Source: Haloferax volcanii DS2 (GTDB lineage Archaea; Halobacteriota; Halobacteria; Halobacteriales; Haloferacaceae). Taken from it: 32,000 nt of DNA. Numbering within the stretch: position 1 is the first letter of the stretch; each line of letters opens with the position of its first letter. The translations under genes and the position numbers were made by a program. Location: assembly GCF_000025685.1 (NCBI RefSeq), contig NC_013967.1:1980001-2012000 (forward strand), read 5' to 3'. This document shows positions 18,477 to 32,000 of this stretch, piece by piece. Under the pieces are notes generated by a model that saw only the letters and a list, made by a program, of their open reading frames with translations, was not told the origin of the DNA and made no database searches.

Positions 18477-19643
18477 TTACTGCGCGGCGAACAGTCGTTC
18501 GAACACGACCGTCGGGAACCGCGGTTCGAGTCGGCTCGGCGGCCGGCCTTTCCGTTCGACGCGCTCCGCCGTGACCCGGCGGGTGATGCCGTCTTCTGCG
18601 AGTTCGTAGAGGATGCGCTTGACCGTGGTCGGTGAGAGGTCGACCGATTTGGCGATGTGCTGGCTCGTCGCCCGCACCGACTGCTGTTGGTCGGGGCGCA
18701 ACGCGAGGAGTTCGTGGAGCACCTGCCGGCGGTTCTCCGGGAGCGAGAACACGCGGCCGAGCGAGACGCAGGGTTGGGGGACCGCGGCGATTCCGTCGGC
18801 GACGTCGGCGGCCGTGATGCTCCGGTGTTGGTTGCGGACCGCTTCGTCGGCCGCGCCGAACAGCGCCACGAGCGCGTCGTGAGCGTCGCCGTCGGCCCAC
18901 TCCGCGATGTCGCGAGCGAGTCGGTGGTCGAGCGTCCGCCGCGACCCGGCCGCCGACACTCGCGTCATCAGCACGTCGACGAGCACCTGACTCTGGTACG
19001 GTTCGAACTGAATCGCGCCGGCCGTGTAGTCGGTCAGCACCGTCTCGTCGGGCGGCGCGCGCCCGATAGCCAGCCAACTGACTTTGCTCGGAAGCCCGGC
19101 ACAGAGGTCGACGAACGCCTCGCCGTCGAGCGTCCCCGACTCTTCGAGGTGGTCGACGGCGACGACGGCACCCGTCTTCGGGCCGTCGAGCGCGTCCTTG
19201 AGCCGCGACTGGAGCGCCTCGGTCTTGATACCCTGCTTGGGCACGGACTCATCGACGAGCGCGTCGAGCACGGCGTGGTAGAACGCGAACGCGCTCGTCG
19301 TCTCGCGCGCGTCGACGTAGACGAACCGCGGCGCGAACGTCGCCTGCACGCGGGTCGTCGTGTGGATGGCGGCGTTGTTGACGCTCGACACGCGGACGAG
19401 GTGGTCGAACAGCGCCGTCACGACCGCCGACTTCCCCGACCCCTTGGGTCCGTAGACGTAGGCGTTCGGCGGGAGATGGCCGTCGAACACCGGGTCGAGG
19501 TAGTCGAGCAGTCGCTCTAACACCGGTCCGCAGTTCACCGGGTCGTCGGTGTGCGCGACCGGCGAGAGCGAGTCGTAATCGACGAGGAGGCGAGGCTCAC
19601 CGTCCCGGCGTTGCCGACGTTGGATCCTCGCTTCGATGTCCAT
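18477..19643 (-). CDS. orc1: Orc1/Cdc6-family AAA+ protein (replication-initiator paralog)
   Basis: Walker A GPKGSGKS, Walker B VVAVDHLEE and a C-terminal winged-helix region (TTVKRILYELAEDGI). The true start is MDIEARIQ at 19643, and a GATATAC box (19671..19677) lies about 28-34 nt upstream. Confidence 0.85.
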   Translation of the reverse strand: MDIEARIQRRQRRDGEPRLLVDYDSLSPVAHTDDPVNCGPVLERLLDYLDPVFDGHLPPNAYVYGPKGSGKSAVVTALFDHLVRVSSVNNAAIHTTTRVQATFAPRFVYVDARETTSAFAFYHAVLDALVDESVPKQGIKTEALQSRLKDALDGPKTGAVVAVDHLEESGTLDGEAFVDLCAGLPSKVSWLAIGRAPPDETVLTDYTAGAIQFEPYQSQVLVDVLMTRVSAAGSRRTLDHRLARDIAEWADGDAHDALVALFGAADEAVRNQHRSITAADVADGIAAVPQPCVSLGRVFSLPENRRQVLHELLALRPDQQQSVRATSQHIAKSVDLSPTTVKRILYELAEDGITRRVTAERVERKGRPPSRLEPRFPTVVFERLFAAQ

Positions 19644-19724
19644 GTCGTAGTGGTAGTTCCGAAATGGGAGGTATATCAGTTCTGACTGCTTACGGCTGTG
19701 GTACGTCTGTGGTCGCCCGGTCGT

Positions 19725-19736
19725 CGAACGTGTTCG
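19725..19736. promoter_or_regulatory. IR box A: CGAACGTGTTCG
   Basis: Lies in the orc1 / DUF2249 divergent spacer. It ends 40 nt before ATG 19777, and its centre is 87.5 nt from the orc1 ATG at 19643. Confidence 0.65.
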
Positions 19737-19776
19737 GGGCAACCGACTCGGCGGTCCCCAACGAGGTACGACGCGT

Positions 19777-20010
19777 ATGGCAGACACCACCCTCGACGTG
19801 CGCGACCTCCCACCGGCGGAGCGCCATCCGAAGATTCACGCCGCGTTCGACGACCTCGACGCCGGCGAGTCGCTGACGATTCTCAACGACCACGACCCGA
19901 AGCCGCTGTTCTACGAAATGCAGGCCGAAGTCGACGCGTTCGACGCCGACAACTACACGGTCGAACAACGCGCTTCCGACGAGTTCGCGGCGACGTTCCC
20001 GAAGCGGTAG
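19777..20010 (+). CDS. DUF2249-domain protein (77 aa)
   Basis: LDVRDLPPAERHPKIHAAFDDLDAGESLTILNDHDPKPLFYEM matches my memory of the DUF2249 pattern and is paralogous to 25712..25972. IR box A ends 40 nt upstream. Confidence 0.75.
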   Translation: MADTTLDVRDLPPAERHPKIHAAFDDLDAGESLTILNDHDPKPLFYEMQAEVDAFDADNYTVEQRASDEFAATFPKR

Positions 20011-20013
20011 CGC

Positions 20014-20043
20014 CGCGGCCGCGGGTCGCGGGTCGCGGCCGCG
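20014..20043 (+). other. GC-only hairpin (10-bp stem, 10-nt loop) directly after the DUF2249 stop codon
   Basis: CGCGGCCGCG (20014..20023) pairs perfectly with CGCGGCCGCG (20034..20043). The loop GGTCGCGGGT is part of a tandem CGGGTCG repeat. No T-run follows it. Confidence 0.4.
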
Positions 20044-20092
20044 AGTCGTACATCGCTGTCCCGACCCGTCTCCGCCGTTTCTCCACTCTCGT

Positions 20093-20104
20093 CGAATATG
20101 TTCG
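20093..20104. promoter_or_regulatory. IR box I: CGAATATGTTCG
   Basis: Lies between the DUF2249 and NnrS-like genes and ends 38 nt before ATG 20143. Confidence 0.6.
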
Positions 20105-20142
20105 GCGTCACCGGTAGGGCTTCGCGCCGCGCTAGTCCGCGT

Positions 20143-21483
20143 ATGAGCGTCATTCCCGCCGATGTCGACACGACCCGACAGCCCCCGATGACGATTCCGC
20201 TCCGGCACTTCGTCGTCGCGCTCGGCTTCCTCGCGGCCGCGGTGGGCCTCCGGGTCGCTTTCGCCGTCGGCGTCGCTCCCGGTGCCGCCCGACTCGCCCA
20301 CGTCCACCTCCTGCTCGCGGGGTGGGTGTGCGTCACCATCATGGGCGCGATGACGCAGTTCGTCCCGGTCTGGTCCGGCGTCGAACTCTACTCCCGACGA
20401 CTCGCGACCACGCAGTTGTGGGTCGTCAGCGTCGGTCTCGCCGGCCTCGCGGGATGCTTCCTCCTCGGGGCGTTCGCGTGGCTCCCCGTCTTCGGTGCCG
20501 TCGCGCTCCTCGGCTTCTGGACGTTCGCCTACAACGTCGCGCGCACGCTCTCCCGACTCGACGGCTCCGACGTGACCGAGCGCCACTTCGGCCTCGCACT
20601 CGGATTTCTCGCGGTCGTCACCGCGCTCGGCGTCCTGCTTGCGGTCGACTTCACGCGCCCGCTTTTCGCCGGTATCGGCGTGGGCCACGCGAGCGTCCGC
20701 GCGGCCCACGTCACGCTCGCCGTCTTCGGCGTCGTCGTGACGACCGTCGTCGGCGCGCTCTACCAACTCGCGACGATGTTCACCCAGACAAAGCTCCGCG
20801 GCGTCGACGTGTGGCTCCGCCGATTCGAGGAGGTCGGCTACCCCGTCGGTGTCGTCGCCCTCGCCGGTGGCCGACTCGTCTCCGACCCGACGCTCGCGCG
20901 GGTCGGCGGCGCGCTCGTCGCCCTCTCGCTTTTCGGTGTCGCCGCGATTCTCGCCCGTCGCCTCGTCGAGTCGGCGGTCGATTGGACGCCCATGCTCACC
21001 CGGTACGCCGTCGCGGCCGTCGCGCTCGCCGGGTGGGCCGTCCTGACGCTCCCCGCGTGGCTCGCGGACCCGCTGGCGGGGGACCGACTGTTCGGCGCGC
21101 CGGGAACCGGGTCGCTGTTCCGGCTCGGCTTCGTCGGCTTCGTCGTGCTCGGGACGCTCTACCACGTCGTCCCCTTCATCGTCTGGATCCACCGATACAG
21201 CGACCGCCTCGGCCTCGAACCCGTGCCGATGCTCGACGACCTCTACGACGCCCGCCTCGCCCGCCTCGATTTCGGTCTCGTCGTCTCGGGCGTCGCCGCC
21301 GTCGTCGCACGCGACCTCGCCGGTCTCTCGACGGGCGTCGAGACGGCGGGCTGGACGCTCGTGCTCGCCGGTGTGGCGGCGTTCGCTGCGAACCTCCTGC
21401 GAGTTATCTGGCTCCACAGCCCGCAATCGCTGGTCGGCGGCGCGGCCGCGTCGGCTGGCGGTGCGGACGACGGCGCTGACTGA
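20143..21483 (+). CDS. Polytopic His-rich membrane protein, NnrS-like (putative haem/copper NO-stress protein)
   Basis: About 12 TM segments. AHVHLLLAGWVCVTIMGAMTQFVPVWSG fits the NnrS-type pattern H-x-H-x4-G-x7-G-x3-(T/Q)-x2-P-x-W-(S/T)-G as I recall it. A second half-repeat is AHVTLAVFGVVVTTVVGALYQ. The start at 20143 (MSVIPADV) is chosen because IR box I (20093..20104) covers the earlier ATG 20098 and ends 38 nt before 20143. The family assignment is from memory, not from a search. Confidence 0.75.
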   Translation: MSVIPADVDTTRQPPMTIPLRHFVVALGFLAAAVGLRVAFAVGVAPGAARLAHVHLLLAGWVCVTIMGAMTQFVPVWSGVELYSRRLATTQLWVVSVGLAGLAGCFLLGAFAWLPVFGAVALLGFWTFAYNVARTLSRLDGSDVTERHFGLALGFLAVVTALGVLLAVDFTRPLFAGIGVGHASVRAAHVTLAVFGVVVTTVVGALYQLATMFTQTKLRGVDVWLRRFEEVGYPVGVVALAGGRLVSDPTLARVGGALVALSLFGVAAILARRLVESAVDWTPMLTRYAVAAVALAGWAVLTLPAWLADPLAGDRLFGAPGTGSLFRLGFVGFVVLGTLYHVVPFIVWIHRYSDRLGLEPVPMLDDLYDARLARLDFGLVVSGVAAVVARDLAGLSTGVETAGWTLVLAGVAAFAANLLRVIWLHSPQSLVGGAAASAGGADDGAD

Positions 21484-21514
21484 GTCGGCGCGTCAGGGAC
21501 GGTCTCGCACCCAC

Positions 21515-21814
21515 TCACATCCCGAGCAGTTCGGGTGCAAGAAAGAGGAGTGCGAGCAGGCACGTCAGGACGAGAACCGCCACGACGCGCAGGCCGCCGG
21601 CCGCTCGTCGTCGGTCCTCCGGGAGCGACTCCGCGAGTCCGGACAGGGCGGTCCCGGCTATCATGAACAGCGGCCAGTTCCCCGACAGAGACTGTTCCAC
21701 GACCGCGTACTGCCAGTACAGCCCCGAGAAGACGAGCGCGCCAGAGAGTTGGACGACTGGAAAGAGGCCGCCGGTGGGTTCGCTGAACAGGGTTTCGTCA
21801 ACTATGGAGGGCAT
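21515..21814 (-). CDS. Small (99 aa) three-TM membrane protein, hypothetical
   Basis: GC3 is very high on hand translation and there are three hydrophobic helices. Start choice is between 21814, 21826 and 21850. It is divergent from the cupin gene across IR box B. Confidence 0.5.
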   Translation of the reverse strand: MPSIVDETLFSEPTGGLFPVVQLSGALVFSGLYWQYAVVEQSLSGNWPLFMIAGTALSGLAESLPEDRRRAAGGLRVVAVLVLTCLLALLFLAPELLGM

Positions 21815-21922
21815 TGAACACGTCATCGCCCGCGAAGGTGAAAAGAGCACCTGCCTTCGCCACCTCGGTCGCGCTCGCGCTGGCTCTCGTTCACATCCGG
21901 TCGCTTCCGGCCCCGCGTCCCC

Positions 21923-21934
21923 CGAACACGTTCG
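21923..21934. promoter_or_regulatory. IR box B: CGAACACGTTCG (CCGAACACGTTCGG with flanks)
   Basis: Ends 41 nt before the cupin ATG at 21976. It is followed after 6 nt by GGCTTACC (21941..21948). Confidence 0.65.
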
Positions 21935-21975
21935 GCCGCAGGCTTACCGACCGTGCGGTCGACGACTCACTCGTG

Positions 21976-22281
21976 ATGCCAGAACACGCCGTGCTCGACG
22001 ACCTCCCGCCGCAGATGCACGCGCCCGTCTTCGAGACCGACCGTCCGAAAACCGTTAGACTCCGCCTCGAAGCCGGCGACGAGGTGCCGGCGCACTCCCA
22101 CCCCGGGTTCGACATCGTCTTCCACGTCGTCACCGGCCGGATGGAACTCGCGCTCGACGGCGAGACGCACGAGGTTGCCGCGGGAGAGCTGCTGCGGTTC
22201 GGCGGCGACCGCGACATCTCGCCGCGCGCGCCGGTCGACAGTACCGCAGTGCTCGTGTTCGCCCCGGCTGTCGACGACTGA
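21976..22281 (+). CDS. Cupin-domain protein (101 aa)
   Basis: Cupin motif 1-like DEVPAHSHPGFDIVFHVVTG and motif 2-like GELLRFGGD. The start at 21976 (MPEHAVL) is 41 nt after IR box B; the ORF-track start at 21814 would read through the promoter. Confidence 0.75.
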   Translation: MPEHAVLDDLPPQMHAPVFETDRPKTVRLRLEAGDEVPAHSHPGFDIVFHVVTGRMELALDGETHEVAAGELLRFGGDRDISPRAPVDSTAVLVFAPAVDD

Positions 22282-22316
22282 ACCGCGGGACCAACTCCCG
22301 CGGACGAACACCTGAT

Positions 22317-22931
22317 TTACTCCGGCTCGCCCGACAGCCGCTTCAGTGCCGCCTCGAACTCCTCGGACAGCGAAACCGAATCCGGCTCGTCGCTGTCGCG
22401 CTCACCCGTCGACGAGCCGGTATCGGGGACCGAGTCGTCCGTCTCCGCCTGCGCGTCAGCCGGGTCCATCGCGTCGAGCTCCGCGTTGATGGCGTCTGCC
22501 TGCTGGTGCATCGGCGCGACGCGGACTCGGACGCGGTCGTAGTCGTGACGGTCGTCGAGGCCGTTCCACGCCCGAAACGCGCCGACGGTGAGCGTCTTCG
22601 ACTGCGGGCAAAACGGCGTCGTCGGCGTGAACTCCGCGACAAGCACCGACGGGTCGTCTCGGTCCTCCGCGTAGCGGAACCCCGCGTCCGGGTGGCGGCG
22701 GTCGAGGTTCAGCCGCGCGAGGTTGTAGCCGAACGTCACGTCGTAGACGCCCCGCGCTTCGAACAGGTCGCGGGCGACCCGGTGGACGGCGACGTGGTCG
22801 TCGCCGTCGAGGACGCGGTGGCCGTCGAGGAAGGCGTCCGGGTCGGGCAGGTGTTCGGGGACGAACTGGTCGATATCGTCGAAGCGGTCGGCCCGCGACC
22901 CGCCGCCGAACAGGGACGGAATGTCTGGCAT
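22317..22931 (-). CDS. Hypothetical protein with DUF59-like (MIP18/SufT-type) T-x-T-x-P-x-C-P motif and acidic C-terminal tail
   Basis: The true start is MPDIPSLF at 22931. SVLVAEFTPTTPFCPQSKTL...VRVRVAP resembles the DUF59 Fe-S/metallocentre-assembly fold signature (weak, from memory). Near-consensus IR box C ends 38 nt upstream. Confidence 0.65.
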   Translation of the reverse strand: MPDIPSLFGGGSRADRFDDIDQFVPEHLPDPDAFLDGHRVLDGDDHVAVHRVARDLFEARGVYDVTFGYNLARLNLDRRHPDAGFRYAEDRDDPSVLVAEFTPTTPFCPQSKTLTVGAFRAWNGLDDRHDYDRVRVRVAPMHQQADAINAELDAMDPADAQAETDDSVPDTGSSTGERDSDEPDSVSLSEEFEAALKRLSGEPE

Positions 22932-22969
22932 AGTTCGAAGTGGGGTCGCCACGGGCGTAGGCCCACCCC

Positions 22970-22981
22970 CGAACACGTTCA
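22970..22981. promoter_or_regulatory. IR box C: CGAACACGTTCA (one mismatch)
   Basis: Ends 38 nt upstream of the minus-strand ATG at 22931 (DUF59-like protein). Confidence 0.55.
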
Positions 22982-23172
22982 ATTCACTGTTCGCCGCTGG
23001 CGCTCGTCGCGGTCGTGGCACGAGTGGATAGTGCTTGGTGCTGTCAAAACTCGTCGTCGCGGGGCGGGAGCTACTGATGTGGACGGGCCAACGAGTGGCA
23101 CAGACAGCCCGGACACGGCTCGGAGCGGAGGTCACCGAAATATCGCCACGACGGAGACGGCTCCGGACGCAC

Positions 23173-23502
23173 TCATCTCCGATTTATCAATCGCTGAATC
23201 CGGTCGCGAACGTCGTCCGCGGAGTCGTAAATCTCGTTGTCGACCGAGGCGAGCACCTCGTGGATGGGCTTCGACCCGCCTTGCGTTTCGACCTCGTAGT
23301 CGCCGTAGTTCTCGACGAGTTGCTCCGTCGTGGTCGGATAGTCCTGAATTTCAAGCGCATCGTCGAGGTCACCGAGCTGCTCCCCGGGGGCGCGTTCGTC
23401 GGCGCGGTCACGCGCCTCTTGGAGCGCTCGTTCGCGCTGGCGCTGTTCTTCGTTGGCCGCTTGCTTGTTTCGGCCCTGTTTGTCGTCTGGCATCCTTGGC
23501 AC
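23173..23502 (-). CDS. Small acidic conserved haloarchaeal protein (DUF5789/DUF2795-like 'YPxT..eL' motif)
   Basis: A charged N-terminus followed by LEIQDYPTTTEQLVENYGDYEVE, a pattern I associate with small haloarchaeal DUF proteins. High GC3. Confidence 0.6.
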   Translation of the reverse strand: MPRMPDDKQGRNKQAANEEQRQRERALQEARDRADERAPGEQLGDLDDALEIQDYPTTTEQLVENYGDYEVETQGGSKPIHEVLASVDNEIYDSADDVRDRIQRLINRR

Positions 23503-23735
23503 TTCGAAAGCGAACGGGATAATGCTGTGGCCGATTCTCGGTAGTCGCTTCCGACACGCGGGTTCTGTTAGCTCCGGTGGGGGTCAACAGCGTCAGGGGA
23601 AACCCGGTCAGTCCGGGGACGACCGGTCGGTGCCGGCGCTCCGTTGCGGTCGGAACGGTCGAGTACACGGTGGATGCTAACTGGCCTCAGAGTAGCTTTA
23701 TTTTCGGCCCGATACGGTACACCACTTGCGGAACG

Positions 23736-24002
23736 ATGCGTTCTCACCAATCGCTCGAAATCCTCGTCGTGGCTATCCTCTACATCTGCGTGTTTGTGAT
23801 AGTCGTCGGACCTGCGCTTGATTCGATAGCCGGCTTGGAAACGCTCTCGATGGATGCTCCGAGAGGCGTTGAACGCACGTGGGACTTAGTCTCGAAGCCA
23901 CAGGGCTGGATACTCTGTCTCGGCTACGTTCCAGTTCATTTCGCGTACCTGTTCGTCCGCGCACGACTCGCCGGTGAATCGGTCGATTCCTACTGGGTGT
24001 AG
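23736..24002 (+). CDS. Hypothetical small membrane protein (88 aa), low-GC region
   Basis: ATG at 23736. GC3 is about 65% against about 55% locally, by hand count. There is one clear TM helix and one possible second, and no family was recognised. Confidence 0.35.
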   Translation: MRSHQSLEILVVAILYICVFVIVVGPALDSIAGLETLSMDAPRGVERTWDLVSKPQGWILCLGYVPVHFAYLFVRARLAGESVDSYWV

Positions 24003-24169
24003 TGCTCCGATACCTTTCCGAGATTTACAGACGTGAACTCCCACGGCAGCGACGTTGACGCGCTGAACTCACCCGCTAAGCGTTGCACGCGTGTGCTCTC
24101 AACACCGAGAGGTTTCGACAGAGACGGGCGAAAAACAGCGATCAATGGTTGCCAGTCGGTGCAACGGCG

Positions 24170-25249
24170 CTACTGCGGGTCAGGGTCGGGGTCGAATATC
24201 TCGGGGTCTTCCGCCCCCTCGGCGCGGACGACCGCCATACAGCCCTTGCGGACGACGCGGGACAGCGAGTGGTCGACGAGCTTGAAGTCGCCGGGGACGG
24301 GCGAACTCATCGTCGCGATGGTCGTGCTCCCCGGCGGCACCTGTCGCGTCTGGATGTGGGTCTGCGGCTCGGTCGTCAGCGACCCCTCGGGGTAGAGCGT
24401 CTCCCAGACGCTTCCGATGGGGTGGAAGCTACTGGAGAGGTTCGGCCCCCCGTCGACGAAGTACACCCGGACCGTCTCGTCGAGGCCGACCGTCGCGGCC
24501 GGCCCCCGGCCGTTGGGCGTCCACGCGTACTTCTCGCCGTTCATGAGGACGTACGTCGGCTCCTCGTTCCGCATGGCCTCGTAGTCGAAGGCGTGTTGGC
24601 CCTCCTCGCCGGCGTCCTTGTCGGTGTAGAGTTCGTGCTGGCCGAGGTATATCTCGTGGTCGACCTCGGGCATCCCCTCCGGCGGTTCGACGAGGATGAG
24701 CCCGAACATCCCGGCGCTGATGTGCATGTCCATGTTCGGCACGGCGCAGTGGTAGATGTACGCGCCGGGGTAGGTCGCCTTGAACCGCAGGTGTGCCGTC
24801 TCGCCGGGGTTCGTCATCGTCGCTTCCGCGCCGCCGCCGGGGCCGGCGACCGCGTGGAAGTCGACGTTGTGCGGCATGGTGTTCTCCTCGGGGTTCTCGA
24901 ACGTCACGTTCACCGTGTCGCCCTGCCGGACGCGGACGAGCGGGCCGGGAACCTGCCCGTTGTACGTCGTGTAGGTGAACGTCACGCCGTCTTCTACCTC
25001 GGCGGTCACTTCCTCCGGCCGGAGCGTCACGTCGACCTCGGCGGACTCGCTCCGGTCGATGGGACCGGGGATGTCCGTCGGGTCGGCCGCGACTTGGTCC
25101 ACCAGGTTCGTCGAACCCTGTTGTGTCGGTTCCTCCGTCTCGTCGAGCGACTGCGCGGCGGTCGGCGATTTCGTCGCACAGCCGGCGAGCGATGCGACGC
25201 CGCCGAGTCCGAGCCACTGGAGCGTCCGCCGCCGAGTCGTGGATAGCAT
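24170..25249 (-). CDS. nirK: Copper-containing nitrite reductase, Tat-exported lipoprotein
   Basis: Tat motif TRRRTL and lipobox LAGC. Type 1/type 2 Cu ligand motifs HNVDFHAV and YIYHCAVPNMDMHISAGMFG. An SD-like GGAGGGAG lies 6 nt upstream, and a TTTATA box is at 25295..25290. Confidence 0.95.
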   Translation of the reverse strand: MLSTTRRRTLQWLGLGGVASLAGCATKSPTAAQSLDETEEPTQQGSTNLVDQVAADPTDIPGPIDRSESAEVDVTLRPEEVTAEVEDGVTFTYTTYNGQVPGPLVRVRQGDTVNVTFENPEENTMPHNVDFHAVAGPGGGAEATMTNPGETAHLRFKATYPGAYIYHCAVPNMDMHISAGMFGLILVEPPEGMPEVDHEIYLGQHELYTDKDAGEEGQHAFDYEAMRNEEPTYVLMNGEKYAWTPNGRGPAATVGLDETVRVYFVDGGPNLSSSFHPIGSVWETLYPEGSLTTEPQTHIQTRQVPPGSTTIATMSSPVPGDFKLVDHSLSRVVRKGCMAVVRAEGAEDPEIFDPDPDPQ

Positions 25250-25289
25250 CTGTGTCTCCCTCCGGTTGAATCGAGTGCCCGGATACTGG

Positions 25290-25295
25290 TATAAA
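25290..25295 (-). promoter_or_regulatory. nirK TATA box (TTTATA on the minus strand)
   Basis: A canonical archaeal TATA hexamer 41-46 nt upstream of the nirK ATG. It would place the TSS near 25265 and give a short leader carrying GGAGGGAG. Confidence 0.55.
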
Positions 25296-25328
25296 CGGAC
25301 ACTGGTTGTCCGGGTTGGAGACGCGCTC

Positions 25329-25340
25329 CGAACATCTTCG
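25329..25340. promoter_or_regulatory. IR box D: CGAACATCTTCG, upstream of the nirK TATA box
   Basis: The centre is 85.5 nt from the nirK ATG (25249) and about 42 nt upstream of the TTTATA box (25295..25290). Confidence 0.6.
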
Positions 25341-25418
25341 CGAACCGTACCACGCCGTGAGACGCGGAGAGGCGCGGTCGCTAACGAGCGCGCGAATCCC
25401 GAGCAGACGAACGGGGGT

Positions 25419-25571
25419 TCAGTCGCCGCCGACGAAGCGGTCGCGGCGGTACCGACACTGCTCGCAGAAGAACTGCGCGAGCCCCGCCGGCTGCGTGCCG
25501 GTGAAGGCCATCTCGGAGCCGCAGTCGGGACACCATTCGGAGTGGGTGGTATTCGTGTGGTCTGAACTCAT
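25419..25571 (-). CDS. Zinc-ribbon micro-protein (50 aa)
   Basis: MSSDHTNTTHSEWCPDCGSEMAFTGTQPAGLAQFFCEQCRYRRDRFVGGD has a CxxC...CxxC pair. It has its own AT-rich box (TTAATGTAATAA on the minus strand, 25596..25607) 25-36 nt upstream of the ATG, which is leaderless-type geometry. Confidence 0.5.
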   Translation of the reverse strand: MSSDHTNTTHSEWCPDCGSEMAFTGTQPAGLAQFFCEQCRYRRDRFVGGD

Positions 25572-25711
25572 ACCACGTACAAACGCGTGAGGAGTTATTA
25601 CATTAACGATTATGCCAAATTGCGCGCGATTGATACGTTTCGGGTCGAAAACGGTGCCGCTCCCGGTGCTGACGAGGGGCACGCAGGAGGGGTATCGGAG
25701 ACCGCGCCGAC

Positions 25712-25972
25712 TCAGGGCTCCCAAATCGCGGTGACGACGCCCTCGTCGCGCTCGGCGGAACAGTAGGCGAATCCCCGGTCGTCGAGCTTCGGGTAGAGGA
25801 ACTTCGGCTCGCGGTCGTTAAGCTGGACGAATACGGTTTCGCCGTCGAGGTCGGTGAGGCGGTTCATCGTCTCCGTGAGCGGTTCCGGCGGCGGCAGCTC
25901 CCGCACGTCGAGGAAATCCACCGCTCGCTCGGTCGGTGCGTCGAGTCCGTCGAGGTACGCCTCGCGGTCCAT
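25712..25972 (-). CDS. DUF2249-domain protein (86 aa), second paralog
   Basis: LDVRELPPPEPLTETMNRLTDLDGETVFVQLNDREPKFLYPKL is paralogous to 19777..20010. The true start is MDREAYL at 25972, and IR box E ends 38 nt upstream. Confidence 0.75.
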   Translation of the reverse strand: MDREAYLDGLDAPTERAVDFLDVRELPPPEPLTETMNRLTDLDGETVFVQLNDREPKFLYPKLDDRGFAYCSAERDEGVVTAIWEP

Positions 25973-26010
25973 ATGCGTGTCGTGGGGGCGACAGCGCAGG
26001 AAGCTCACCC

Positions 26011-26022
26011 CGAACGTGTTCG
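26011..26022. promoter_or_regulatory. IR box E: CGAACGTGTTCG (reads CGAACACGTTCG toward the DUF2249 gene)
   Basis: Ends 38 nt upstream of the minus-strand ATG at 25972. Confidence 0.65.
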
Positions 26023-26046
26023 ATTCGGTTTCCCCGGCCAGTCGGC

Positions 26047-26058
26047 CGAACACGTTCG
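26047..26058. promoter_or_regulatory. IR box F: CGAACACGTTCG
   Basis: Ends 45 nt before the radical SAM ATG at 26104 and is followed after 6 nt by GGCTCACC (26065..26072). Its centre is 36 bp from the centre of box E. Confidence 0.65.
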
Positions 26059-26103
26059 GGGCGTGGCTCACCTTCCGCGACGCCGAACCGCACGACAAGA
26101 GCC

Positions 26104-27294
26104 ATGTCTCGACCGCCACACGTCGACACCGACGCCGACGCCGAAGCCAACGCCGACGCGGGAAGTGACGCCGGCGCGCCGCCGACTGCGACCGCCCCGC
26201 CGGACCCGTCGAGCATCGACACCTCGCGGCGGCCGTTCGTCCTCATCTGGGAGGTCACGCAGGCGTGCGACCTCGCGTGCGACCACTGTCGGGCGGACGC
26301 GACGCCCGCGCGACACCCCGACGAACTGACCACCGCCGAAGGAAAGCGCCTGCTCGACCAGGCCCGCGAGTTCGGCCCCGGGCAGCTCGTCGTCCTCTCC
26401 GGCGGCGACCCGCTCGCCCGCTCGGACCTCGTAGACCTCGTCGAGTACGGGACCGACATGGGCCTCAGGATGACTCTCACGCCGAGCGGGACGTCGTCGC
26501 TGACGTCCGAGACGGTTGCTGCCCTCCTCGACGCGGGCGTCAAGCGCATGGCGCTCAGCCTCGACGGCGCGACCGCGGCGTCGCACGACGCCTTCCGAGG
26601 AGAAGACGGGAGCTTCGACCAGACCGTCGCGGCCGCCCGCGCCGCCCGCGAGGCCGGTCTCCCGCTCCAGATAAACACGACCGTCTGCGCCCAGACGGTC
26701 GACGAACTCCCCGCGCTCTGCGACCTCGTGGCCGACCTCGGCGCAGTCCTCTGGTCCGTGTTCTTCCTCGTCCCCGTCGGGCGCGGGCGCGTCCTCGACC
26801 CGATTTCCCCCGAGCGCGCCGAGCGCGTCATGGAGTGGCTGACCGAGGTGAGCGAGGACGCGCCCTTCGGCGTCAAGACGACCGAAGCGCCCCACTACCG
26901 GCGGGTCGCTATCCAGCGCCGGCGGGACGCGAGCGACGCGCCCCCGACCGACGGCATCGGCCGCCGGCTCGGCATCACCGCGGGCGACGGCTTCGCCTTC
27001 GTCAGCCACACCGGCGACCTGTTCCCGTCGGGGTTCCTCCCGGCGACCGCCGGCAACGTCCGCGACGGCGGACTCGTCGAACGATACCGCGAGAGCGACC
27101 TCTTCCGGTCGCTCCGGGACCGCGACGCCCTCGGCGGGAAGTGCGGCGCGTGCGAGTTCCGCCACGTCTGCGGCGGCAGTCGCTCGCGGGCCTACGCCCA
27201 CACCGGCGACCCGCTGGCCAGCGACCCGCTCTGCGGGTACGTGCCCGCCGACTACGACGGCCCGATACCCGGGACTCGGTCGGCGGGCGACTGA
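26104..27294 (+). CDS. Radical SAM / SPASM-domain enzyme (NirJ/AhbD-like or peptide-maturase-like; subfamily unresolved)
   Basis: CxxxCxxC cluster motif in VLIWEVTQACDLACDHCRADA and a C-terminal SPASM-type Cys cluster (GGKCGACEFRHVCGGSRSRAY...DPLCGY). The true start is MSRPPHV at 26104, and IR box F ends 45 nt upstream. The N-terminal 40 aa are an acidic low-complexity stretch. Confidence 0.9.
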   Translation: MSRPPHVDTDADAEANADAGSDAGAPPTATAPPDPSSIDTSRRPFVLIWEVTQACDLACDHCRADATPARHPDELTTAEGKRLLDQAREFGPGQLVVLSGGDPLARSDLVDLVEYGTDMGLRMTLTPSGTSSLTSETVAALLDAGVKRMALSLDGATAASHDAFRGEDGSFDQTVAAARAAREAGLPLQINTTVCAQTVDELPALCDLVADLGAVLWSVFFLVPVGRGRVLDPISPERAERVMEWLTEVSEDAPFGVKTTEAPHYRRVAIQRRRDASDAPPTDGIGRRLGITAGDGFAFVSHTGDLFPSGFLPATAGNVRDGGLVERYRESDLFRSLRDRDALGGKCGACEFRHVCGGSRSRAYAHTGDPLASDPLCGYVPADYDGPIPGTRSAGD

Positions 27295-27328
27295 CGCCTC
27301 GAGAAGTGGCAGCGCACGGGAAGCGACC

Positions 27329-27340
27329 CGAACACGTTCG
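27329..27340. promoter_or_regulatory. IR box G: CGAACACGTTCG
   Basis: Ends 39 nt before the halocyanin ATG at 27380. Confidence 0.65.
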
Positions 27341-27379
27341 GGACAACCGCTTGCATCCGTCGCCGCCGAGGTACAGCCG

Positions 27380-27946
27380 ATGACGCGCGACACCAACCAC
27401 ACGAGACGGCGTTTTACGGCACTGACTGCGACGGCGGCGCTGTCGACGGCGCTCGCCGGCTGTTCCGGCTCCGGCGGCGACGCCGCGAACGCGGCCGCGG
27501 CGGACGGGGACGACGCGACGACCGCCGAATCGACCGCGGAGCCGACGACCGAGTCCGGCGGCACGACCGGCGGCGACGACGGTTCCGGCGACGGGAGCGC
27601 CCCGCAGTTCGACGGCTGGTTCGACAACGTGGACAACTACGACGGCGTCGCGGACGCGACCGGGCAGTCGACAGTCACGGTGACGGTGGGGTCACAGGCC
27701 AACGGCGGGGCGTTCGGGTTCGGCCCGGCCGCCGTACGGGTCGATTCCGGCACCACGGTCGTCTGGGAGTGGAACGGCAAGGGCGGGTCGCACAACGTCG
27801 CCGCCGCCGACGGCACCTTCGAATCGGAGTTGGCGGGCAGTAGCGGTCACACGTTCGAACACACCTTCGAGGCGGCCGGGACGTACACTTACGCCTGTAC
27901 GCCCCACGAGACGGTCGGGATGAAGGGCGCAATCGTCGTCGAGTAG
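27380..27946 (+). CDS. Halocyanin (type 1 blue copper protein), Tat-exported lipoprotein
   Basis: Tat motif TRRRF and lipobox LAGC, an acidic Thr/Gly linker, and cupredoxin ligands GGSHNV ... YACTPHETVGMKG. IR box G ends 39 nt upstream. Confidence 0.9.
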   Translation: MTRDTNHTRRRFTALTATAALSTALAGCSGSGGDAANAAAADGDDATTAESTAEPTTESGGTTGGDDGSGDGSAPQFDGWFDNVDNYDGVADATGQSTVTVTVGSQANGGAFGFGPAAVRVDSGTTVVWEWNGKGGSHNVAAADGTFESELAGSSGHTFEHTFEAAGTYTYACTPHETVGMKGAIVVE

Positions 27947-28042
27947 CGTCCGACCGCGTCGTTTCTCGGTCCGGTTTCGCCCGCCGTCGGTCGGTTCTCT
28001 CCCGCCCGCGAACTTCTTCTCCCGGTACGACGAATCTCTCGT

Positions 28043-28540
28043 ATGCCTCGGACCTCGGTCCTCGCCGCCGCGCGTCGTCGCCCGTCGCTCACGTTCGCCC
28101 TCGCGGGCGGCGCGTTCGCGCTCTGGTACGTGCTCGCTGAGCCGGTGGTCGCGTTGCTGACCGGCGGCGACCCGGCCGTCCCCTCCGGACCGATGGCGGT
28201 GCTCGTCGCCGGGGGGTTTCTCGGCGGCGGCCTGCTCGCCAGCCTGCTCTGGCGGCGACTCGGCGGGCCGACCTCCCGACTCCGCGGCGCGCTCGTCGGC
28301 GGCCTCGTCGGGTTGCTCGCGCTCCCGGTCCCGATGTACCTGCTCGAACTCGCGGTGGTCGTGATGGAGGGGAGCCCGTTCGAAGCGCCGGTCGGGATGG
28401 GGCCGGTTGCGGCGCTCGCGAGGAGCGTTGCCCTGTTTCTCGTCGCCCCGCTGTTCCTCGGGGCGCTGGGCGTGATTGCGACGCTCGGCGGGACGGTCGT
28501 CGTCGGGGCCGCGACGGGGCTAGTGCTCGCGTGGGAATGA
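28043..28540 (+). CDS. Hypothetical four-TM membrane protein
   Basis: A high-GC ORF with Ala/Leu/Gly-rich helices and no competing ORF with better features. No family was recognised. Confidence 0.55.
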   Translation: MPRTSVLAAARRRPSLTFALAGGAFALWYVLAEPVVALLTGGDPAVPSGPMAVLVAGGFLGGGLLASLLWRRLGGPTSRLRGALVGGLVGLLALPVPMYLLELAVVVMEGSPFEAPVGMGPVAALARSVALFLVAPLFLGALGVIATLGGTVVVGAATGLVLAWE

Positions 28541-28718
28541 GTCGGCAGTCCGATGTCGGCGAAAAACAGAGACGGTGAATCAGTCGCCGGTTGCGCTGTT
28601 GTGCATCCGTTATCTGATGAGGTGGTGTGACACGGACAGAGGCTGTATGCAGTAATTCGCTATCCTTCGTTTCGCACCGAAGTGGGTGAATAGACCGAGG
28701 AAATCACGTGCGAGTTGG

Positions 28719-29390
28719 TCATCCGAGCGAACTGGGGGTCAGCGTGTCACCGAGAACGTATAGTGGTATTCCAAGCAGAACCCCGATAACGCCAAATGCA
28801 ATGAATACGAGTGCTGCTGGTCCTCGCACTCGCTTTGTCATTGGAATTGAGTTGACTAACGCAAGCACATATACCGAGAACACGAGTAGATAAGAGAGAA
28901 TAATCGGCTTACGACTACTCTGCCGAGAAACATAACCCACAGGGAACATTGCTGCGAGTGGAAGGGACAAGTATAGCGAAATCTCGATACTATTGGAACC
29001 GAGGAGACGAAGAACTGCAGAGAATTGAAGTCCATTCGCAGCAAGGAGAGCGACCACAACTCCCGCCAGCGATGCGAGCCAACATCCGATGGTAGAGCAG
29101 TATGGGTATCGCTGATGTACAAACGAAAATAATCCAAGAGTAAAGTAGACACCACCAACTGAGAACAGCCACGGGGTTGAATCTCTAATGAGAGGGACCA
29201 AAGAAGGATACAGTGGATGTCCGAGGAAGTAGACACTAATTACAAACACAGCGACACTACTTCTGTTATTGTCGATACTTCGGTTTTGTAGCAAATTCCT
29301 CAGCAAACGATGTATTGTATAGAAAGACCCAGTAACGATAGCAGCCGGAAATACGACGAGCCAGATTAGATTAGTAAGAACCACATTCAT
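28719..29390 (-). CDS. Hypothetical polytopic (about 6-7 TM) membrane protein in a low-GC island
   Basis: A 223-aa ORF with an ATG start and consistently hydrophobic segments. Local GC is well below the window average. No motif was recognised. Confidence 0.55.
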   Translation of the reverse strand: MNVVLTNLIWLVVFPAAIVTGSFYTIHRLLRNLLQNRSIDNNRSSVAVFVISVYFLGHPLYPSLVPLIRDSTPWLFSVGGVYFTLGLFSFVHQRYPYCSTIGCWLASLAGVVVALLAANGLQFSAVLRLLGSNSIEISLYLSLPLAAMFPVGYVSRQSSRKPIILSYLLVFSVYVLALVNSIPMTKRVRGPAALVFIAFGVIGVLLGIPLYVLGDTLTPSSLG

Positions 29391-29547
29391 GAGTTAGATT
29401 ACTAACAAATGTTTGATAAGTTTTGTGGGGCTGTCTATCGCTTCGTATCTCGTCAGATGAGAGCTGGCCAGAGACCGACTCGCGCGCTCTATGCAGCACG
29501 ACTCCGACAAATATCAGAAAATACGAGGTTCGACAGAGCCTCGCCCG

Positions 29548-31830
29548 TTAGTCGTCGCCCAAGATACCCTCAGCGACCGCCATATCGTCGACGCTCGGGT
29601 CGTCGGCGGACTGCCTGAGGACGAACCGCTTTCTGACGAGGTCAGCCGCGTAGATGACCGTCCCGAGGATGATGAGGGAGTCGCCGGGGAGCCGCGCCCA
29701 GAACAGCGTCTGAATCAGCGGCTGGTCGTAGAAGGCGACGCTCCGAGCGGCGGCGTAGCTCCCGGTGAACGCCGTCTCCAGTTGGAGGAAGCCGACCGGG
29801 AGGACGGAGACGAACACCATCAACACGAGGCCGACGTTCCAACACCAGAAGGCGGCGCGCAGCCACGAGCCGTCCCAGCGCTCGGGGTCGATGGAGAGCT
29901 GGAGCATGTAGGTGACCATGCCGAGCGCGAGGAAGCCGAACGCGCCGAACATCGCGGCGTGGGCGTGGCCGACCGTCAGGTACGTCCCGTGTTCGTAGTA
30001 GTTGATGAGCGGGAGGTTGATGAAGAAGCCGAGCACGCCCGCGCCGACGAAGTTCCAGACGCCGCTGGCGACGATGAACATGAACGGCAGGCGGTACGGG
30101 AACGACTCGCCCGACATCGCGCGGTACTGCCCGAGCGCCTCGTAGAGGATGAACACCAGCGGGATGAGTTCGAGCGTCGAGAAGACGCTCCCGATGGGCA
30201 CCCACATGTCGGGCATGCCGACCCACCAGTAGTGGTGCGAGACGCCGATGATGCCCGTCCCCATGACGAGCAGCGCCTGGAGCATGACGGCCTTCTCTGC
30301 GCTCCGGCGGGACAGCAGGTTCATCGACACCAGCGTCAGGCCGACGATGGCGACGATGAAGAACTCGAACGCCCCCTCGACCCACATGTGGACGACCCAC
30401 CAGCGCCAGAACTCCGTGACGGCGATGTTCGTCTCGGGGGTAAAGAGGAAACCCGCGGTGAACAGGAGGGCGATGGAGCCGCCGGCGTACAGAATCATGT
30501 GCGCCAGTCCGTACGGCGGTTCCTTGTCGAGAAGCGGTTTCAGGCCGCGGACGGCCAGTCCCGCCCAGATGAGGAAGCCGGCGAGGATGCCGAACTGCCA
30601 GAGCTTCCCGACTTCGAGGTATTCGAGCCCCTCGTTGCCGAGAATCCACCACAGCGAGCCGTCGATGTAGCCGTTCGCGCCCAGCCAGATGCCCGACAGG
30701 CCGCCGACCACGACGACGACGATAGCGCCGAGGAGGACGTTGATGTACCTCGACTGCTTCGGCGGTTCGTAGCCGGTCAGAAGCGGCGGGAGGAACAGCC
30801 CCGCGCCGAGCCACGTCGCGGCTATCCAGAGGATACCGAGGTCGATGTGCCACGTCTTGGCGATGGCGAACGGGAGCAGTTGCAGGATGGGCACGCCGAA
30901 TAGCGACTCGATGCCGAAGAAGCCGGCGCGCTCGATGTAGAAGTGCGCGAGCAGACCGCCCAACAGCACCTGCGCCAAGAACAACCCGGCGGCGACCGGG
31001 ATGAACCGGAGCGCCGCCCGCTGGCTCGGGAAGACGCTCACGTCGCCCGGTTCGGGCACCGTGATGTCCTCGGCCGACGGCTCGGGGAGTTCGACCGACT
31101 TGTACAGCCAGATGCCGAGGCCCGCCCCCGCGACGAGAAGCACCATGGCGACGACGCTCCACGTCATCGAGGCGGCGGTGGCGTCGTTCCCCGCGCCGGG
31201 CTGGTACGGCCAGTCGTTCGTGTACGAGTGGGTGCCGTCGGGGCGGTCGGTGTGAGAGAACCACGCCGTCCACATGGCGAAGTCCGCGAACGCCCGCGCC
31301 TCCTCCTCGGAGTCGATCATGTTTACGGGCACGCCGCGCTCGTGGTCGCCCTCGTGGTAGCGCTCGACGTACTCCTGTCGAACCTGCTCGTGGGCGTAGA
31401 CCTCGGCCGCAGTGTACCGAATCACGCCGCCCTCGTAGCTGTCGTCGAGGTCGGATTTCACCACGTCGGCGACGGCCGCTTGGTCTGCGGAGTCGAGTTC
31501 GTCGTAGGGTTCACCGTAGCGCTCTTGGGCGTAGTAGTTCCGCATGAACCCGACTTTCAAATCCAGCGCGTCGGCGGTGTAGTCCGCGCCGTAGTACGCG
31601 CCGTTGCCCAGTATCGACCCGTGGTTCATCAGGCCGTCTCTCTGGAACACCGTCTTGCCCTCTCGAATCACGTCGCCGTTGGCGACGACGTCACCGTCGG
31701 GTCCGACCACCTCGTCGGGGATGGGTGGGGCCTCCTGATAGGCGAACCACGCGCCCGCACCCATCACGACGAGGTTGAAGACGAACACGACGACGATTGC
31801 CTTCGCGATGGTCTTGCGTTGTATCTCCAT
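29548..31830 (-). CDS. norZ: Nitric oxide reductase, long single-subunit quinol-dependent type (qNOR)
   Basis: 760 aa with an N-terminal TM segment and periplasmic extension fused to a haem-copper-oxidase core. Conserved His motifs are VVHMWVEGAFEF, SHHYWWVG and GHAHAAMFGAFG. Confidence 0.95.
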   Translation of the reverse strand: MEIQRKTIAKAIVVVFVFNLVVMGAGAWFAYQEAPPIPDEVVGPDGDVVANGDVIREGKTVFQRDGLMNHGSILGNGAYYGADYTADALDLKVGFMRNYYAQERYGEPYDELDSADQAAVADVVKSDLDDSYEGGVIRYTAAEVYAHEQVRQEYVERYHEGDHERGVPVNMIDSEEEARAFADFAMWTAWFSHTDRPDGTHSYTNDWPYQPGAGNDATAASMTWSVVAMVLLVAGAGLGIWLYKSVELPEPSAEDITVPEPGDVSVFPSQRAALRFIPVAAGLFLAQVLLGGLLAHFYIERAGFFGIESLFGVPILQLLPFAIAKTWHIDLGILWIAATWLGAGLFLPPLLTGYEPPKQSRYINVLLGAIVVVVVGGLSGIWLGANGYIDGSLWWILGNEGLEYLEVGKLWQFGILAGFLIWAGLAVRGLKPLLDKEPPYGLAHMILYAGGSIALLFTAGFLFTPETNIAVTEFWRWWVVHMWVEGAFEFFIVAIVGLTLVSMNLLSRRSAEKAVMLQALLVMGTGIIGVSHHYWWVGMPDMWVPIGSVFSTLELIPLVFILYEALGQYRAMSGESFPYRLPFMFIVASGVWNFVGAGVLGFFINLPLINYYEHGTYLTVGHAHAAMFGAFGFLALGMVTYMLQLSIDPERWDGSWLRAAFWCWNVGLVLMVFVSVLPVGFLQLETAFTGSYAAARSVAFYDQPLIQTLFWARLPGDSLIILGTVIYAADLVRKRFVLRQSADDPSVDDMAVAEGILGDD

Positions 31831-31896
31831 ACACGTCGTGGTTCACACGCCTGCAATAGGCTCTACACGCCGCTTCCCGGCCTCGCACAGCTCGGA

Positions 31897-31908
31897 CGAA
31901 CATGTTCG
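31897..31908. promoter_or_regulatory. IR box H: CGAACATGTTCG (perfect 12-bp palindrome)
   Basis: Lies in the norZ / unknown-gene divergent spacer. Its centre is 72.5 nt from the norZ ATG (31830) and 45.5 nt from ATG 31948. Confidence 0.65.
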
Positions 31909-31947
31909 GATAGGCTCTTTGAGCCGGACGCCGTTCCTCGAAGCGTA

Positions 31948-32000
31948 ATGACGACCGATTCGCGACCCGCGGCCCACGACCACGACACGCCCGACACGGC
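31948..32000 (+). CDS. 5' end of an unidentified gene (partial), divergent from norZ
   Basis: ATG at 31948 (MTTDSRPAAHDHDTPDT...). IR box H ends 39 nt upstream, the same phasing as the other box-associated starts. The fragment is too short to assign a function. Confidence 0.35.
   Translation, partial: MTTDSRPAAHDHDTPDT

Follow-up and report, generated by a model that had tools for sequence, protein, structure and literature searches.

The window analyzed here, a stretch of 32,000 nucleotides of Haloferax volcanii DS2 (NC_013967.1, positions 1,980,001 to 2,012,000), contains nine copies of a 12-bp inverted repeat, CGAA-N4-TTCG, at the promoters of an island that encodes the copper nitrite reductase NirK and the quinol-type nitric oxide reductase NorZ. 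These boxes are the haloarchaeal denitrification element that has already been published, and they represent a rediscovery, not a new element. Very probably, this known element (CGAAYATDKTYG) is the palindromic site of a dimeric helix-turn-helix (HTH) activator, most likely of the Bat/HTH_10 type, which activates the nirK-nor island and a set of accessory genes at low oxygen in the presence of N-oxides. As far as comparison of sequences can tell, our analysis adds to the published picture a quantised spacing between box and start codon, conservation over about 13 genera, two promoter boxes past the window end, and a box at the gene of a Bat/HTH_10 regulator.

A pattern search of the window found eight exact matches and one copy with a single mismatch. 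All nine are intergenic and confined to the last 12.3 kb, as judged from the gene calls of an identical public contig (JAERQW010000006.1, GCA_018420015.1), the reverse complement of which is 100% identical to positions 19548-32000 of the window. The coordinates, sequences and intergenic position given for them in the initial annotation were confirmed. The boxes, for which no strand is assigned, are listed below with the number of bases between box and ATG.

Box A, 19725..19736: CGAACGTGTTCG, 40 nt upstream of the ATG of a DUF2249 gene (19777, + strand)
Box I, 20093..20104: CGAATATGTTCG, 38 nt upstream of the ATG of a gene for a 446-aa membrane protein (20143, + strand)
Box B, 21923..21934: CGAACACGTTCG, 41 nt upstream of the ATG of a cupin gene (21976, + strand)
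Box C, 22970..22981: CGAACACGTTCA, the copy with one mismatch, 38 nt upstream of the ATG of a DUF7998 gene (22931, - strand)
Box D, 25329..25340: CGAACATCTTCG, 79 nt upstream of the ATG of nirK (25249, - strand)
Box E, 26011..26022: CGAACGTGTTCG, 38 nt upstream of the ATG of a second DUF2249 gene (25972, - strand)
Box F, 26047..26058: CGAACACGTTCG, 45 nt upstream of the ATG of a radical SAM/SPASM (AhbD-like) gene (26104, + strand)
Box G, 27329..27340: CGAACACGTTCG, 39 nt upstream of the ATG of a halocyanin gene (27380, + strand)
Box H, 31897..31908: CGAACATGTTCG, 66 nt from the ATG of norZ (31830, - strand) and 39 nt from the ATG of a CGCGG-family gene (31948, + strand)

Boxes E and F are 36 bp apart. 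Box I overlaps an in-frame ATG at 20098; the called start at 20143 is the one with the conserved spacing.

Several results separate these sites from the background. The relaxed pattern CGAA-N4-TTCG has 11 exact matches in the window, including three outside the island, at 2874 (CGAACCGGTTCG), 11174 and 17866 (CGAAGCGGTTCG). The three have non-consensus centres and scores of at most 8.0 with a position weight matrix (PWM) built from the sites (17866 is below the listed matches). The first two fall within long open reading frames (ORFs) with a high GC content at third codon positions, and the third within the long fbp ORF, near its probable true start. The initial annotation had noticed only the match at 11174, missing the other two, and had put the chance expectation at 0.3 per 32 kb, whereas dinucleotide shuffles give about 1.5 per window (at most 4) and a Markov estimate gives 1.46. 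The observed box count was reached in none of 100 shuffles, and with the strict centre YRYR seven matches are seen in the window against 0.13 expected. When 42 kb were scanned with the PWM, the nine sites scored 17.5-23.2 bits and the next best 12-mer 12.9; twelve 12-mers in these 42 kb reach at least 17.5 bits and all others stay at or below 12.9. Because of this gap, the nine sites form a discrete class. In an alignment of eight window promoters and the regulator promoter just past the window end, the nine sequences share only the 12-mer and one following G. Their flanks are unrelated, and the copies are thus independent sites and not duplicated DNA.

The same element has been described in two Haloferax species. 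In H. volcanii, CGAA-X4-TTCG is common to the promoters of nirK (HVO_2141), norB (HVO_2147), HVO_2145, HVO_2150 and ahbD (HVO_2144), of which HVO_2145 and HVO_2150 encode blue copper proteins (PMC5746218), and the palindrome is essential for nirK transcription according to Hattori 2016, as cited by Kosugi 2017 (PMC5746218). In H. mediterranei, the motif CGAAYATDKTYG precedes nirK by 79 nt, nor by 66 nt and nos by 69 nt; point mutations in it reduced the activity of the nos and nor promoters, and the motif is present in 83 promoter regions (PMC10062603). The 12.5-kb nirK-nor island of that species carries eight copies, which Table S5 of PMC11218638 pairs with the Bat-like regulator/halocyanin, CGCGG protein/nor, halocyanin, DUF2249/radical SAM-SPASM, nirK, hypothetical, cupin and pseudogene promoters. 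Under denitrifying conditions the box-linked orthologues were all induced, with log2 fold changes of 2.8-8.7 by RNA-seq (PMC11218638, Tables S3 and S5). In these orthologous systems, therefore, promoter activity depends on the box, and the genes linked to it are co-induced (PMC10062603, PMC11218638). In addition, twelve H. volcanii genes (HVO_2134, 2136, 2137, 2140-2142, 2146, 2147, 2149_A, 2150, 2153 and 2154) rise together in a mutant transcriptome, where they form part of cluster 16 (PMC10716476 supplement).

The island in the window agrees with that of H. mediterranei in the sequence of the box, which matches the published consensus, in the orthologous promoters that carry it, and in its distances of 79 nt to nirK and 66 nt to nor. 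The accessory targets are also the same (DUF2249, cupin, radical SAM/SPASM and CGCGG proteins, halocyanins, Bat-like regulator and multicopper oxidase), and copy numbers are comparable, with eight in 12.5 kb there and nine in 12.2 kb here. There are differences in detail: the divergent DUF2249/radical SAM pair has separate boxes, E and F, here and a single box in H. mediterranei; the strong box A at the first DUF2249 gene does not appear in its Table S5; and the centres are mostly CACG/CGTG here but YATG there. A shared operator of an anaerobic/N-oxide regulon, as had been proposed from the window, is thus supported by the published palindrome and by the orthologous promoters, and the link of CGAA-N4-TTCG to Haloferax and NarO is borne out by the literature (PMC5746218, PMC10062603). 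By contrast, the large number of accessory genes under the box, which had been thought to be new, is not: the accessory-gene promoters with boxes correspond gene by gene to Tables S3 and S5 of PMC11218638, where the orthologous pairs come with RNA-seq induction, and the H. volcanii box at the radical SAM gene was noted in PMC5746218. In the main, our finding shows that this genome conforms to the published pattern. Hypersaline systems receive N2O and NO from haloarchaeal denitrification, a process whose regulation is poorly understood.

To follow the box across taxa, 39 nirK loci were fetched, 31 haloarchaeal and 8 bacterial. In the haloarchaeal nirK neighbourhoods, the strict motif was seen 123 times against 2.0 expected; the eight bacterial loci gave 0 matches. 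The position of the box relative to start codons is kept in about 13 haloarchaeal genera, and the nirK box itself is invariant, at a fixed distance, in the five genera sampled and in an unclassified Halobacteriales metagenome-assembled genome (MAG).

The distance between box and ATG takes preferred values. Within the window, seven boxes and the CGCGG side of box H are proximal, and the distances to norZ and nirK are distal. Over the fetched loci, 48% of box-gene pairs have a distance of 36-46 nt, against 7.5% of random positions, and the distribution has three peaks: one at 38-42 nt, one at 66-67 nt that comes from nor and the multicopper oxidase, and one at 78-81 nt that comes from nirK. The 113 unique promoters with a distance of 36-46 nt show, counted from the ATG, a weak T-rich patch between -30 and -27 as well as a peak of A/T at -11/-10. 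These are the positions of the TATA (TTWT) and the WW element in haloarchaeal core promoters, and leaderless mRNAs make up 72% of the H. volcanii transcripts (PMC4983044). The 113 promoters thus combine a fixed distance between box and start with TATA and WW positions relative to the ATG, as leaderless promoters would. No entries for HVO_2134-2151 were found in the transcription start site (TSS) tables of Babski 2016. At the proximal promoters, the box is probably centred near -45, directly upstream of a weak TFB-recognition element (BRE)/TATA.

The distal promoters are built differently. The nirK promoter has a TTTATA hexamer 33 nt after box D and a Shine-Dalgarno-like GGAGGG before the ATG. 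Aligned nirK upstream regions from the five genera and the Halobacteriales MAG retain both half-sites, a TATA-like block 33 nt further on and the Shine-Dalgarno sequence GAGGTGA, the last of which indicates that nirK is leadered. In the 66-nt class, a good TATA occupies -33 to -26, and the promoters share a further conserved element, GRGAAYCG. Across genera, this element lies 18-27 nt after the box and about 8-10 nt before the TATA at nirK, nor and the multicopper oxidase gene, in the following regions (L040 is a fetched locus that carries DNA past the right end of the window).

25280-25312 of the window: GRGAAYCG region of nirK
31840-31880 of the window: GRGAAYCG region of norZ
5870-5912 of L040: GRGAAYCG region of the multicopper oxidase gene

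The element resembles a half-site, and no description of it was found in the literature that we consulted on haloarchaeal denitrification promoters.

What we infer here is the promoter geometry and the identity of the binder. A dimeric activator of the Bat/HTH_10 type would bind the palindrome when oxygen is low and N-oxides are present, and, once bound, would turn on the nirK-nor island and the accessory genes. At boxes A, I, B, C, E, F and G and on the CGCGG side of box H, the box ends 38-45 nt before the ATG of a presumably leaderless gene, and the bound activator would recruit TFB/TBP to the abutting weak BRE/TATA. At nirK, nor and the multicopper oxidase gene, the box would act from further upstream, in front of a proper TATA and GRGAAYCG.

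The island continues past the window with genes for the CGCGG protein, a DUF8121 protein, a double-domain halocyanin, a 213-aa regulator with BAT and HTH_10 domains, a small HTH protein and a multicopper oxidase. Two of these genes are preceded by perfect boxes, that of the Bat-like regulator at 42 nt from its ATG and that of the multicopper oxidase at 66 nt, which brings the island to eleven promoter boxes, nine in the window and two beyond. The regulator gene (L040 6493-7134), 2.6 kb past the window end, is probably HVO_2151. A third perfect box, CGAACGTGTTCG, at L040 2231-2242, about 7.5-7.6 kb past the right end, falls within a Na/Ca-exchanger gene, where it could serve as a promoter, either internal or antisense.

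Some observations weigh against the reading of the boxes as activator sites. Firstly, mutation of the nirK box in H. mediterranei lowered promoter activity, but not significantly (PMC10062603). Secondly, no HTH_10 regulator gene is present inside the window. Thirdly, the TATA-like signals at the proximal promoters are weak, and for this reason the leaderless geometry is something that we infer. Finally, the box in the Na/Ca-exchanger gene has no obvious target and no start codon at the usual distance.

Which protein reads the box? In H. mediterranei, the box-binding protein was described as unknown, and NarO is the published regulator in H. volcanii (PMC10062603). Our tentative choice, for us nearly an even call, is that the direct binder is not NarO but the 213-aa BAT/HTH_10 protein of the island, which lacks the cysteine motif. 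It would activate its own gene together with the nir, nor and accessory genes, and NarO would act upstream of it, for example via nitrate reductase and a resulting nitrite/NO signal, in an ANR-to-DNR manner. The perfect box in front of the regulator gene is not peculiar to this genome: a box is present 38-45 nt before it in Haloferax, Halobellus, Salinirarus, Halorussus, Halovenus, a Halobacterium MAG, Haloarcula, Halomicrobium and Haladaptatus. In many genera the regulator is encoded within 10 kb of nirK, and loci anchored on it always have denitrification-linked genes (CGCGG-radical SAM, DUF2249, nos, multicopper oxidase, halocyanin). Within the volcanii group its sequence identity is 97-100%, and it is more conserved than NirK. 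Its recognition helix, AKSTxSExLHRAE, is invariant in nine genera, in parallel with the invariant CGAA half-site, whereas NarO-type proteins carry SVSTxAEHLAAAQ instead. Moreover, H. mediterranei reportedly lacks NarO, yet its boxes are functional (PMC10062603), and the H. mediterranei orthologue of the regulator, E6P09_00735, was induced with a log2 fold change of 3.5 and was named as a candidate regulator by the same authors (PMC11218638). On the other hand, deletion of narO in H. volcanii abolishes nirK activation (Hattori 2016, as reported in papers that cite it), which fits direct binding by NarO equally well, and some distant homologues of the regulator (38-53% identity; loci L019, L023, L028 and L033) have no box upstream. 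The conserved box, the co-location, the invariant helix and the reported absence of NarO from H. mediterranei together favour the island regulator as the candidate direct reader, perhaps downstream of NarO. The spacing rules kept across genera and the conserved box at its gene make it a concrete candidate. Homologues of this protein number 844 in haloarchaea (the best 120 of the 844 were listed), and Protein Data Bank (PDB) sequence searches with it and with the 446-aa membrane protein found no relatives.

The more general proposal would be that in haloarchaea at large the box is read not by NarO but by this cysteine-less Bat/HTH_10 protein, with positive autoregulation from a box at about -45 and two geometries, one adjacent to a weak TATA at leaderless genes and one about 25 nt further upstream with GRGAAYCG at nirK, nor and the multicopper oxidase gene. 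We regard it as a possibility worth stating, although we would not count on it. If true, it would be an archaeal counterpart of the bacterial two-tier control by ANR and DNR.

In Haloarcula and Halomicrobium, the gene of the Bat-like regulator has two boxes, 34-36 bp apart (L044 7944 and 7980; L045 7950 and 7984), one at the activating position (39-45 nt) and the other 5-9 nt before the ATG, over the start site. From its placement, the second box suggests negative autoregulation. Boxes E and F of the window, at 36 bp, have a similar spacing.

It is also possible, if rather doubtful, that NarO, a Bat-type regulator with a Cys4 motif that is encoded elsewhere next to nar, binds the boxes directly and that the Bat-like protein of the island is a mere member of the regulon. 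Activation of both nirK and nar depends genetically on NarO in H. volcanii, according to citing papers, and the palindrome was assigned to an HTH regulator by the authors of PMC5746218. In Haloarcula and Halomicrobium, NarO-type genes (C-x68-CVC-x7-C) follow downstream of the CGCGG-radical SAM genes, and the CGCGG gene of Haloarcula is preceded by a box at 38 nt. Against direct binding by NarO stand its reported absence from H. mediterranei, the fact that the nar promoter there has only a degenerate, non-functional copy of the box (PMC10062603), and the recognition helix of NarO-type proteins, which differs from that of the universally co-located Bat-like regulator. Among the fetched loci, NarO-type proteins (Pfam DmsR_N, with the Cys motif and HTH_10) were found in Haloarcula and Halomicrobium only. 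A further candidate, the AAA_16/Orc-like winged-helix gene beside box A, was rejected as a general binder, being found only in loci of volcanii-group Haloferax.

That the palindrome is instead a bidirectional core promoter for a dedicated TFB/TBP paralogue, with the TSS about 20 nt downstream of the box, appears improbable to us. The half-site CGAA does resemble the haloarchaeal BRE, CGAAA (PMC4983044), the centre is relatively A/T-rich, the box is a symmetric one that at H serves two divergent genes, and the proximal promoters have a weak canonical TATA. However, such a promoter would need a 5' untranslated region of a fixed 17-21 nt, lacking a Shine-Dalgarno sequence, in many unrelated genes; the A/T peaks found at -30 to -27 and -11/-10 from the ATG are in keeping with leaderless promoters; and at nor, nirK and the multicopper oxidase gene, a separate TATA follows the box at 33-40 nt.

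We consider it equally improbable that the box is a repressor operator that silences the island in air. The second box at the Haloarcula and Halomicrobium regulator genes is at a typical repression position, but box mutations lower, and do not raise, promoter activity (PMC10062603), the palindrome was described as essential for nirK transcription in the report cited by PMC5746218, and the sites are upstream of the TATA region and do not cover it. Finally, a chance cluster or the remains of repeated or mobile sequence, which the chance-like appearance of the three relaxed matches elsewhere in the window might suggest, is already refuted by the position kept relative to start codons across about 13 genera, besides the shuffles and the unrelated flanks.

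The proposed activator site can be compared with known systems. Bacterial FNR/ANR and DNR/NnrR boxes (TTGAT-N4-ATCAA) are also 5-4-5 palindromes before nir, nor and accessory genes. The two geometries, one about 25 nt further from the core promoter, are reminiscent of bacterial class II and class I sites, and, as with ANR and DNR, two paralogous regulators may be involved, of which only the NarO-type one has a Cys cluster motif. Unlike the bacterial systems, the haloarchaeal one has another half-site, a Bat/HTH_10 instead of a CRP/FNR protein, TBP/TFB machinery and leaderless mRNAs; the comparison is functional, and membership in these families would not follow from it. The Bat and DmsR regulons of Halobacterium and Haloferax (bop and dms genes) share BAT and HTH_10 domains, activation at low oxygen and the placement of the upstream activating sequence, which immediately precedes the TATA/BRE region. 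In contrast to Bat and DmsR, the island regulator has neither PAS/GAF domains nor the NarO/DmsR_N cysteine motif, and the target sequence is another.

The genes of the island in the window match H. volcanii HVO_2133-2148 in content and order, and Haloferax of the volcanii/prahovense group are the closest among the named relatives listed. Their labels come from Pfam, NCBIfam and the gene calls of the identical contig.

18477-19643, - strand: AAA_16/Orc-like winged HTH protein, left of box A (Pfam, NCBIfam)
19777..20010, + strand: DUF2249 protein, orthologue of HVO_2134
20143..21483, + strand: 446-aa membrane protein with about 10 predicted transmembrane segments, without family assignment
21515-21814, - strand: DUF8011
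21976..22281, + strand: Cupin_2 protein, orthologue of HVO_2137
22317..22931, - strand: DUF7998 protein of 204 aa (contig gene call)
23173-23493, - strand: DUF5789
24170..25249, - strand: nirK, copper nitrite reductase, orthologue of HVO_2141
25419-25571, - strand: HVO_2142-type zinc finger
25712..25972, - strand: DUF2249 protein of 86 aa, its ATG at the conserved box spacing
26104..27294, + strand: radical SAM/SPASM protein (TIGR04053), orthologue of HVO_2144 'ahbD'
27380..27946, + strand: halocyanin, orthologue of HVO_2145
29548..31830, - strand: norZ/qNor, quinol-type nitric oxide reductase, orthologue of HVO_2147
31948..32000, + strand: 5' end of a CGCGG-family putative radical SAM-modified protein (TIGR03995), cut by the window end

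Some labels that had been given from the letters alone have to be changed. For the 446-aa membrane protein, which had been called NnrS-like, this label has no support from Pfam or NCBIfam even at E=10, and Pfam scans with relaxed thresholds gave nothing usable for any of the unassigned proteins. The target of box C is a DUF7998 protein according to the gene call, and the label DUF59-like is not supported. The unidentified gene at the window edge does have its box, and is now identified as encoding the CGCGG-family protein. The radical SAM/SPASM gene had been counted as uncharacterised, although deletion of its orthologue HVO_2144 'ahbD' has a phenotype: it blocked anaerobic growth, which was restored by protoheme (PMC5746218). 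For the second DUF2249 gene, the automatic call gives 119 aa from a GTG at 26071, which would cross box E; the ATG at 25972 (86 aa), which keeps the 38-nt box spacing, is the more likely start.

The His-rich 446-aa membrane protein keeps a box 34-39 nt upstream in six genera, and may therefore be counted as a conserved, functionally uncharacterised member of the regulon. In H. mediterranei, a pseudogene with a box is, by position, probably the orthologue of its gene (PMC11218638).

The radical SAM/SPASM protein scores best with TIGR04053, a family paired with CGCGG-type putative precursors of ribosomally synthesized and post-translationally modified peptides, and AhbD is below the cut-off; despite this score, the H. 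volcanii orthologue HVO_2144 acts genetically as heme b synthase. Both the radical SAM/SPASM and the CGCGG gene are predicted to be controlled by boxes in the window. The two are neighbours in Haloarcula and Halomicrobium, where a NarO-type regulator gene comes next.

The AAA_16 protein at the border of the island is Orc1/Cdc6-like and degenerate, with a winged helix at its C-terminus, and its gene is preceded by a TATA-like GATATA of its own, about 30 nt from the ATG. The halocyanin gene is probably co-transcribed with that of a 165-aa membrane protein at 28043-28540. Beyond it, a stretch of about 1 kb (28550-29550 of the window) has a low GC content of 0.42-0.49, against 0.65-0.75 around it, and carries an ORF of 223 aa with four predicted transmembrane segments (28719-29390, - strand). 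Among the fetched loci, this ORF is present in this genome and in Haloferax sp. Q22 only, and H. mediterranei has an IS1595 transposase in its place. Because of this limited occurrence and the transposase at the same place, norZ and the halocyanin operon appear to be separated by a hot spot for insertions.

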